This document shows positions 28,659 through 28,843 of a DNA stretch of 47,922 bases, piece by piece; positions within the stretch are counted from its first letter, which is position 1; each line of letters begins with the position of its first letter. Made by a program: the position numbers and the translations under genes. Location: the sequence record SRR31156797_1383; one strand, 5' to 3'. The notes beneath the pieces are model-generated. The model worked only from the letters and a program-made list of their open reading frames with translations, did no database searches and was not told the DNA's origin.

Positions 28659-28694
28659 AAAAGCGTGAGAACATTCGGTTCTCACGCTTTTTTT
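28659..28694. terminator. Intrinsic terminator immediately after the small-peptide ORF (potentially bidirectional)
   Basis: aaaagcgtgagaac / gttctcacgctttt perfect 14-bp inverted repeat with a 5-nt loop; T7 on plus, TTTTCT on minus. Confidence 0.85.
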
Positions 28695-28743
28695 AGACAA
28701 AACTGAGGCAGATCAATAGAAAAATCATTACTAGCCAATGCAT
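28693..28743 (-). CDS. Small hydrophobic peptide MHWLVMIFLLICLSFV (candidate Rgg signalling peptide)
   Basis: Minus strand reads taaggag-caacaaacg-ATG CAT TGG CTA GTA ATG ATT TTT CTA TTG ATC TGC CTC AGT TTT GTC TAA; upstream -10 TATACT (28811-28816); terminator directly after the stop. Confidence 0.6.
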   Translation of the reverse strand: MHWLVMIFLLICLSFV

Positions 28744-28843
28744 CGTTTGTTGCTCCTTAAGTCGTATTAGAAGAAGCCAATTGGGCAGCGGTGTTTCCTT
28801 CTTACCAACAAGTATAACCGCTTCGAGTAGAATGAACGTTTAC

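Follow-up and report, generated by a model that had tools for sequence, protein, structure and literature searches.

The stretch of DNA analysed here (47,922 nucleotides (nt) of sequence record SRR31156797_1383, hereafter the window, on whose numbering coordinates are given unless another locus is named) carries on its minus strand a gene for an Rgg-family regulator and, upstream of it, a small open reading frame (sORF) for a hydrophobic peptide of 16 residues; this pair is the subject of the present analysis. The sORF, MHWLVMIFLLICLSFV followed by TAA (28693-28743, minus strand; ATG 28743-28741, TAA 28695-28693), is a candidate pheromone precursor and forms the core of a minus-strand mini-transcription unit in which a -10 hexamer is followed by a 5' untranslated region (5' UTR) of ~60 nt, a Shine-Dalgarno (SD) sequence, the 16 codons, the stop codon and a hairpin. 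An earlier interpretation made without database searches (the sequence-only reading) had described such a unit, and its -10 hexamer, ribosome-binding site, ATG, TAA and terminator were all found where it had placed them. The -10 hexamer TATACT (28811-28816, minus strand) lacks a -35 element and is of the activator type; it is invariant in Enterococcus innesii and is seen at an equal offset in two further loci (L040 and L057). The SD sequence TAAGGAG (28753-28759, minus strand) stands 9 nt before the ATG; its AAGGAG is retained in every orthologue and a GGAG-type SD lies ahead of every paralogue. Within the 5' UTR, GCUUCUU (28771-28777, minus strand) is able to pair with the AAGGAGC of the SD in both the minimum-free-energy and the centroid folds, and with its CTTCTT invariant in 13 orthologous sequences it may act as an anti-SD element. 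The sequence-only reading had also taken an upstream segment reading NWLLLI for a decayed second copy of the peptide. This part of the claim falls: the segment is in frame in the window, but a 1-nt indel in E. innesii puts it out of frame and leaves an in-frame stop, and E. innesii and the L080 orthologue both have CGT in place of its Trp codon. Its conservation at the nucleotide level accords better with a 5'-UTR structure in which CTTCTT would pair with the SD.

The unit ends in an intrinsic, bidirectional terminator hairpin (28659-28691, minus strand) that begins 2 nt past the peptide stop. Its perfect 14-nt arms (28691-28678 and 28672-28659, 100% complementary) enclose a 5-nt loop and are followed by TTTTCT, with 7 T on the plus strand. 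The hairpin is kept in E. innesii, where a C-to-T change preserves a G-U pair, and in orthologues of the L080 type an LPKTG gene takes its place. In the interval 28659-28698, the stem is so near the stop codon that a ribosome terminating there would cover its 5' arm, and translation-dependent read-through into rgg may result. The rgg ATG at 28490 is 202 nt beyond the peptide stop on the same strand, which bears out the spacing of about 200 bp that had been claimed, and rgg has a -10 hexamer TATAAT of its own (28536-28541, minus strand) that is invariant in E. innesii. A generic promoter and terminator scan of the window listed neither the peptide promoter nor the hairpin, since the promoter lacks a -35 element and the A/T arms of the hairpin absorb the T tail. 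Hydrophobic sORFs preceded by an SD are not rare, as ~11 of them (some nested) passed the filter in 13 control loci of ~15 kb each, and the case for this gene therefore depends on comparison across sequences.

The regulator itself (27606-28490, minus strand; 294 amino acids (aa)) combines an HTH_3 and an Rgg_C domain (PF21259, 2.1e-48; PF01381; TIGR01716) and belongs to an Lmo0325-like clade. In a phmmer comparison with the PDB, Lmo0325 was the strongest match (4RYK, E 1.8e-42), followed at a distance by the Rgg2/3 structures that bind short hydrophobic peptides (SHPs; ~1e-12 to 2e-12) and by RopB (9.5e-6), the RopB chains in this comparison being without their DNA-binding domain. Lmo0325 has as its neighbour the LPXTG internalin-like lmo0327, whose phenotypes it affects (PMC5666140), and it is placed among the Rggs without evidence of an activating peptide (PMC12445099).

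Relatives of the peptide were sought both close to the window and well beyond it. The closest records are from E. entomosocium (Rgg 99% identical; sORF region 100% identical in DNA over a 341-nt query), followed by E. innesii (Rgg 94% identical; 84% DNA identity over 304 nt of the intergenic region), whose ORF differs from that of the window by two conservative and two synonymous changes. More divergent versions occur at paralogous loci: MKWFFMICTLVLLSFI in E. entomosocium, 32 nt upstream of the start of a 60%-identical Rgg paralogue, MCWVLMVIFLIILSFL, for which the Rgg paralogue, a third one, is 46-47% identical and 2.5 kb away, and MKWVLFVLVLICLSFI in genome G002, at 2.8 kb from an Rgg that is 30-32% identical. 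A degenerate pattern for the family matched once in the window and never in 100 shuffles of it. Allowing up to two mismatches, the degenerate pattern found 5 places in 2 of 134 Enterococcaceae genomes (reversed control, one match), whereas a looser pattern with up to three mismatches gave 11 places in 401 Lactobacillales genomes against 4 control matches; three of these 11 belong to the peptide family, one of them (G002) being new. An exact-pattern scan of metagenome contigs added 17 members among 19 matching stretches, namely eight of the form MDW...SFV, four MHW...LVL, three MKWFF, one MHW...FLL and one MDW...SFF. The family has thus been seen in genomes of the Enterococcus casseliflavus group and in metagenomes. 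The ten matches outside the family (eight three-mismatch Lactobacillales matches and two from metagenomes) have no Rgg nearby (0/10). One rejected match, at L042, has no SD and lies within a longer ORF on the opposite strand.

Eight distinct ORF sequences encode seven distinct peptides, each 16 codons long, begun by ATG and preceded by an SD, and such 16-codon homologues recur beside Rgg paralogues. Six residues are invariant across the seven peptides (M1, W3, L10, L13, S14 and F15), while their codons vary: Leu13 is written CTC, CTT, CTG or TTG, Ser14 and Phe15 each use two codons, and all three stops (TAA, TGA and TAG) occur. Position 2 is H, D, K or C and there is no internal acidic residue in any variant. 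A CAAX-like reading of the C-L-S-F-V ending was set aside, the Cys standing at -5 and being replaced by Leu or Ile in two paralogues. Among the orthologues (five distinct ORF sequences), the variable codons comprise six synonymous and four non-synonymous changes (H2D, F8L, L9V and V16F), where the expected synonymous share is 0.21 (P ~0.008), and in codons 10-16 the excess is sharper at five synonymous to one non-synonymous (P ~0.002). In a related strain known from a sequencing run, the stop has changed from TAA to TGA. Taken together, the synonymous excess, the constant ORF length and the stop swaps are the signature of a translated peptide, and on comparative grounds the ORF is a conserved coding gene in which the tightest constraint appears to fall on the C-terminal heptapeptide LICLSFV. 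It could still be argued that the ORF is there by chance, in a leader that does not code and is conserved for an RNA or DNA function only, since the whole intergenic region is fairly conserved (the 84% to E. innesii given above). We find this barely credible, because paralogues whose DNA differs at most synonymous positions all retain the ORF with its length, start, SD and stop, in addition to the excess of synonymous changes and the stop-to-stop replacements.

The peptide gene is closely linked to Rgg. At each of the five distinct places, which are spread over three genomes, an Rgg paralogue is found within 3 kb, and these paralogues span a wide range of identity to that of the window (99, 94, 60, 46-47 and 30-32%). 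Among eight Enterococcus genomes, the Rgg clade is present in three and the peptide in the same three, with neither in the other five, and all six matches to the Rgg clade in the genus have the peptide within 3 kb; as related genomes are not independent, this co-occurrence is a description and not a statistical test. An Rgg is also seen by tblastn within the available stretch for 14 of the 17 metagenome members, the other three ending at a contig edge.

The order of genes around this pair is variable. In the window, E. entomosocium and E. innesii, the box promoter (a promoter headed by a palindromic box described below) is followed by the peptide, the terminator and rgg. In orthologous metagenome loci such as L080 the peptide is again behind the box promoter and is followed after 24 nt by a gene for a 484-aa LPKTG protein and then by rgg (92% identical), so that L080 6562-9192 and window 28490-28743 differ in the presence or absence of this Pro-rich LPKTG gene between peptide and rgg. 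At G008:C12 the peptide precedes, by 57 nt, a 428-aa LPKTG protein, followed by DUF7006, CPBP, rgg and two further CPBP genes. In G002 the box promoter drives an LPKTG protein, DUF7006 and the peptide (with an ATGA overlap), divergent from CPBP-rgg-CPBP, and at G001:C47 it is followed by a 400-aa LPXTG-like protein, the peptide and rgg. The tandem arrangement noted by the sequence-only reading holds in the window and is one of four gene orders, and across these loci Rgg and peptide are the constant pair, with the LPKTG gene between them variable. E. innesii has two identical copies of rgg plus peptide (L009, G008:C8, and L011, G008:C10), both at contig starts; this is a true duplication, or else the assembly has broken in the repeat gene next to the pair. 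Outside these loci, intergenic listings of the peptide-less Rgg loci gave no convincing peptide candidate, and none of the 21 Rgg loci at the level of the order held a convincing sORF. At one peptide-less locus (L057 8703-8720, plus strand), a 5-codon ORF reading MKKTK with a strong SD lies between the box promoter and an LPKTG gene.

Upstream of the peptide promoter lies a palindrome, GGTCCTACATTTCGGAC (28844-28860, minus strand), which is the sole zero-mismatch match to the box in the window and a putative Rgg operator. Its GTC is 43 nt before TATACT, and the box has the consensus GGTCY-N8-RGAC, often extended to ...GACC. As far as could be told, the peptide units at all five genome places are headed by a box ~43 nt before the -10 element; at G008:C12 the peptide is directly behind the promoter, as in the window, and the box there is degenerate. 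Rgg homologues of other Enterococcaceae genera likewise have the box beside them, as do those of a second family (genomes of ~2.8-3.0 Mb with up to three paralogues), which is probably Listeria. The loci scanned hold 22 box sites, and in 14 of them a TAnnnT hexamer starts at +43 or +44, the background being 8% per reading; four more sites carry a GTG-[GA]TA[CA]AA element at that position. At peptide-less loci the box promoter precedes genes for small LPKTG proteins and then CPBP proteases. We infer that Rgg binds the box palindrome. A second box-like palindrome with two mismatches, GTCTGAAATAAAAGAC in the minus-strand reading (28572-28588), lies upstream of the rgg promoter, is conserved in orthologues of the terminator type and may take part in rgg autoregulation. 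A further box (L063 6772-6789) stands downstream of the G001:C47 rgg, ~300 nt before a gene for a 204-aa coiled-coil membrane protein that may be an additional member of the regulon.

The sequence-only reading had named an Ibs-like type I toxin as its alternative. By this account, an Ibs/Fst-like toxin would be held in check by a convergent antisense RNA sharing the bidirectional terminator, and several features invite it: the ORF is tiny and hydrophobic throughout, its 5' UTR is structured with an SD that a hairpin could sequester, the terminator has 7 T on the plus strand, and on that strand a weak hexamer, TAATCT, stands 47 nt away from the palindrome at 28572-28588. Such an antisense RNA would, however, overlap the stop codon only, and between 28300 and 29800 neither an Rfam family above threshold (E-value mode; sub-threshold noise alone) nor a plus-strand promoter was found in the scans. 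The peptide also lacks the charged tail of these toxins. Moreover, the paralogues sit within putatively Rgg-controlled operons with no convergent partner (they show the ATGA overlap in G002 and elsewhere stand 57 or 24 nt ahead of an LPXTG gene or 32 nt ahead of rgg), and every copy is tied to an Rgg locus, none being scattered or in tandem arrays. With paralogues inside operons and no antisense partner found, we consider a type I toxin very improbable.

Evidence on expression comes from assembled, unstranded contigs of RNA libraries. A single contig of 257 nt (depth 5), assembled from an ant metatranscriptome (X2), spans 28535-28791, and thus the ORF and the terminator. It is a weak hint, given that it is unstranded, that DNA carry-over is possible and that contigs of another library (X3) also cover regions upstream of the promoter. 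Library X1 is a single, uninformative contig of 23.7 kb, and the lack of cover over the ORF in X3 and X6 carries no meaning. As regards export and processing, enterococcal pheromones are hydrophobic hepta- or octapeptides that depend on Eep for processing and on PptAB for export (PMC4173765). Homologues of EcsB/PptB and of RseP/Eep are present in all three genomes checked.

SHP precursors are ~20-35 aa in length. The present system resembles that of Rgg2/3 and SHP in that a receptor with helix-turn-helix and Rgg_C domains adjoins an SD-preceded sORF for a hydrophobic peptide, in that the promoter ahead of the peptide gene has a putative operator of the receptor's type, consistent with a feedback layout, and in the presence of PptAB and Eep homologues. 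In both cases conservation is higher among the peptides than among their receptors, and for SHP/Rgg cross-talk has been described (PMC3679016). The peptides themselves differ, however, and the absence of SHP hallmarks noted by the sequence-only reading extends to all seven variants: at 16 aa they have neither a Lys-rich N-terminus nor a conserved Asp or Glu before a mature part, whereas an SHP precursor combines a positively charged N-terminus with a hydrophobic core, and its mature C-terminal part is usually preceded by Asp/Glu (PMC12445099). The receptor is likewise much closer to Lmo0325 than to the SHP-binding structures (1.8e-42 vs ~1e-12).

The leaderless communication peptides (LCPs) of RopB offer a second comparison. 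They share with the present peptide a very short, uncharged sequence rich in aliphatic and aromatic residues, a Trp near the N-terminus and the lack of a recognizable leader. LCPs are mostly 8-10 aa and the characterized ones are divergent from their receptor genes, although longer forms with C-terminal appendages have been proposed (PMC10518010). In contrast, the peptide here is 16 aa in 7/7 variants, is encoded in the window by the strand that carries rgg (other orders being seen elsewhere), has its strongest constraint in the C-terminal half and accompanies a receptor to which RopB is a weak match. The LCPs described for E. casseliflavus are charged, polar or proline-containing (PMC10518010), and judged by this description they are probably different peptides from the family here. 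The term leaderless-type, as used in the sequence-only reading, is unproven for this peptide because of its 16-aa length, a receptor nearest to Lmo0325 and not RopB, and a C-terminal heptapeptide that is the most constrained part. The SIP string cited in that reading was not found in the main text of PMC10518010.

The output of PrgX/PrgQ-type enterococcal pheromone systems includes an LPXTG surface adhesin. The likeness of these pheromones to the present peptide, as Eep- and PptAB-dependent hydrophobic hepta- and octapeptides, is one of composition only, while the receptor here is of the Rgg_C type and not PrgX, and a distant blastn search of the plasmid collection gave no match to the locus. 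A further comparison is with Lmo0325 of Listeria monocytogenes and ElrR of E. faecalis, "orphan" Rggs beside surface-protein genes. Lmo0325 is the closest solved relative of our regulator, and the box-promoter architecture recurs in the second-family loci taken as Listeria. No peptide of the family was found in these loci, and for Lmo0325 and ElrR an activating peptide is not known (PMC12445099).

On balance, we judge that the sORF is probably the precursor of a pheromone for the adjacent Lmo0325-like Rgg, autoinduced, and neither SHP-like nor a typical LCP. To this extent the candidate circuit of the sequence-only reading stands as the best reading of a conserved coding gene coupled to Rgg, its second peptide copy being unsupported. 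In the mechanism that we propose, Rgg would bind the GGTCCTACATTTCGGAC palindrome, centred ~50 nt upstream of a start site that is expected near 28805-28803, and activate the -35-less TATACT promoter. In the window strain the resulting transcript would encode the 16-residue peptide alone, and in sister strains the 484-aa LPKTG protein as well. The peptide would insert in the membrane, be exported by a transporter of the PptAB/EcsAB type and perhaps be trimmed by a protease of the Eep/RseP type or by the neighbouring CPBP protease. Once re-imported, it would bind the C-terminal repeat domain of Rgg and close a positive feedback loop. The existence of the gene, its coding constraint, its linkage to Rgg and the conservation of the box-promoter architecture are observed, and secretion, processing and peptide-Rgg binding are inferred. 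For the active moiety our guess is the most constrained part of the peptide, its C-terminal L-[IV]-x-L-S-F-[VILF] heptapeptide; alternatively, the active form may be leaderless and full-length.

Several observations weigh against the pheromone reading. A strong Rgg match (E<=1e-40) is present in 25 of the 134 Enterococcaceae genomes and the peptide in only 3, homologous Rgg-box-LPXTG-CPBP modules occur in other genera without it, and a scan for hydrophobic sORFs around 13 peptide-less Rgg loci (~±7 kb) returned no family member. In a quick maximum-likelihood tree of 42 Rggs (nine near-duplicate rows dropped beforehand; L010 on a long branch), the peptide-bearing regulators fall in three places, these being the window group with the 60% paralogue, G008:C12 among peptide-less relatives and G002 on a long branch. 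The peptide label thus needs three changes on this tree and tracks host genus, not receptor lineage. Nor do peptide and receptor co-diverge, the peptides of G002 and E. innesii sharing 10 of 16 residues even though the G002 Rgg is 30-32% identical to that of the window. That the peptides are far more alike than the receptors implies either cross-talk or a function other than receptor binding. The peptide also has no Lys-rich leader and no conserved acidic cleavage residue and is longer than a typical LCP, and what speaks for binding of the box by Rgg is its position and its conservation.

The main rival explanation is a membrane micro-protein or a regulatory sORF belonging to an Rgg-controlled surface-protein module and not acting as a ligand of Rgg. 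Possible roles include those of a partner or substrate of CPBP, a helper of the LPXTG protein, or a translation-controlled terminator read-through that sets rgg expression. The restriction of the peptide to one genus, when the Rgg/LPXTG/CPBP module is widespread without it, fits such a role, as do the lack of co-divergence and the fact that in G002, G008:C12 and L080 it is transcribed together with LPXTG and DUF7006 genes. For the regulatory version there is the stop codon abutting the terminator stem and the anti-SD hairpin ahead of the ORF. A purely translational switch, however, needs no constraint on the C-terminal heptapeptide of the kind seen here (five synonymous to one non-synonymous), and the paralogous loci lack the terminator and anti-SD context. 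As a micro-protein, 16 uncharged residues make a short membrane anchor, and at loci without the adjacent LPKTG gene the peptide still accompanies Rgg. We hold this explanation to be rather unlikely, and continue to favour a pheromone precursor.

In the window, a CPBP/Rce1-like membrane protease (25066-25740, minus strand; PF02517, E 5.6e-13), a recurrent neighbour of these Rgg modules, is homologous to the CPBPs beside Rgg paralogues, and a polysaccharide deacetylase (25909-27534) is a neighbour of the rgg/peptide pair. On the other side, and divergent from the pair, is a gene for a 3124-aa LPKTG surface protein with many repeats of ~150 aa (29644-39018, plus strand). The box scan of the window found no Rgg box ahead of this gene; RNA-library contigs begin near 29369-29384, ahead of it. 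Across genera, the small LPXTG proteins beside Rggs (L050, L051, L057, L040, L065 and L080) have in common an N-terminal DG-x-WY...G motif with Pro/Thr-rich repeats after it, and the motif is found in the proteins of both peptide-less and peptide-bearing loci. The CPBP proteases beside them are homologous as well (25-46% identical). DUF7006 proteins occur in box-driven operons with the peptide, at L045 1548-1958 (minus strand; 136 aa, G002) and L013 319-657 (plus strand; 112 aa, G008:C12).

Overall, the candidate system works like an Rgg-peptide circuit yet fails the peptide definitions of both SHPs and LCPs. None of five peptide strings was found in the full-text collection searched, and keyword searches returned no description of an Enterococcus Rgg peptide of this kind, with the proviso that the supplementary sORFs of PMC10518010, listed beside 975 RopB homologues, could include it. 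More tentatively, and with a little less than even confidence, we propose that peptides of the form M-x-W-(6 hydrophobic)-L-[IV]-x-L-S-F-x may constitute a third style of Rgg pheromone and the first cognate signals for the Lmo0325/ElrR-like "orphan" clade, with a near-common code across three divergent Rgg lineages of one genus wiring several LPXTG adhesin operons to one signal through the operator GGTCY-N8-RGAC.

Surface proteins with a link to virulence or colonization are under the control of Lmo0325/ElrR-type Rggs, which are listed without a known activating peptide (PMC12445099). A conserved candidate peptide, together with a candidate operator, makes the question of the orphan-Rgg signal directly testable, and in a tractable Enterococcus. 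Homologous modules of other genera do without the peptide, and three Rgg lineages 30-60% identical to one another would share nearly the same one. If the peptide is not a ligand, it would still be a conserved, unannotated micro-protein under putative Rgg control. If the pheromone reading is true, the rules by which RRNPP pheromones are mined would be widened, as uncharged ORFs of 16 aa are outside the expectations for both SHPs and LCPs and below the limits of gene callers.

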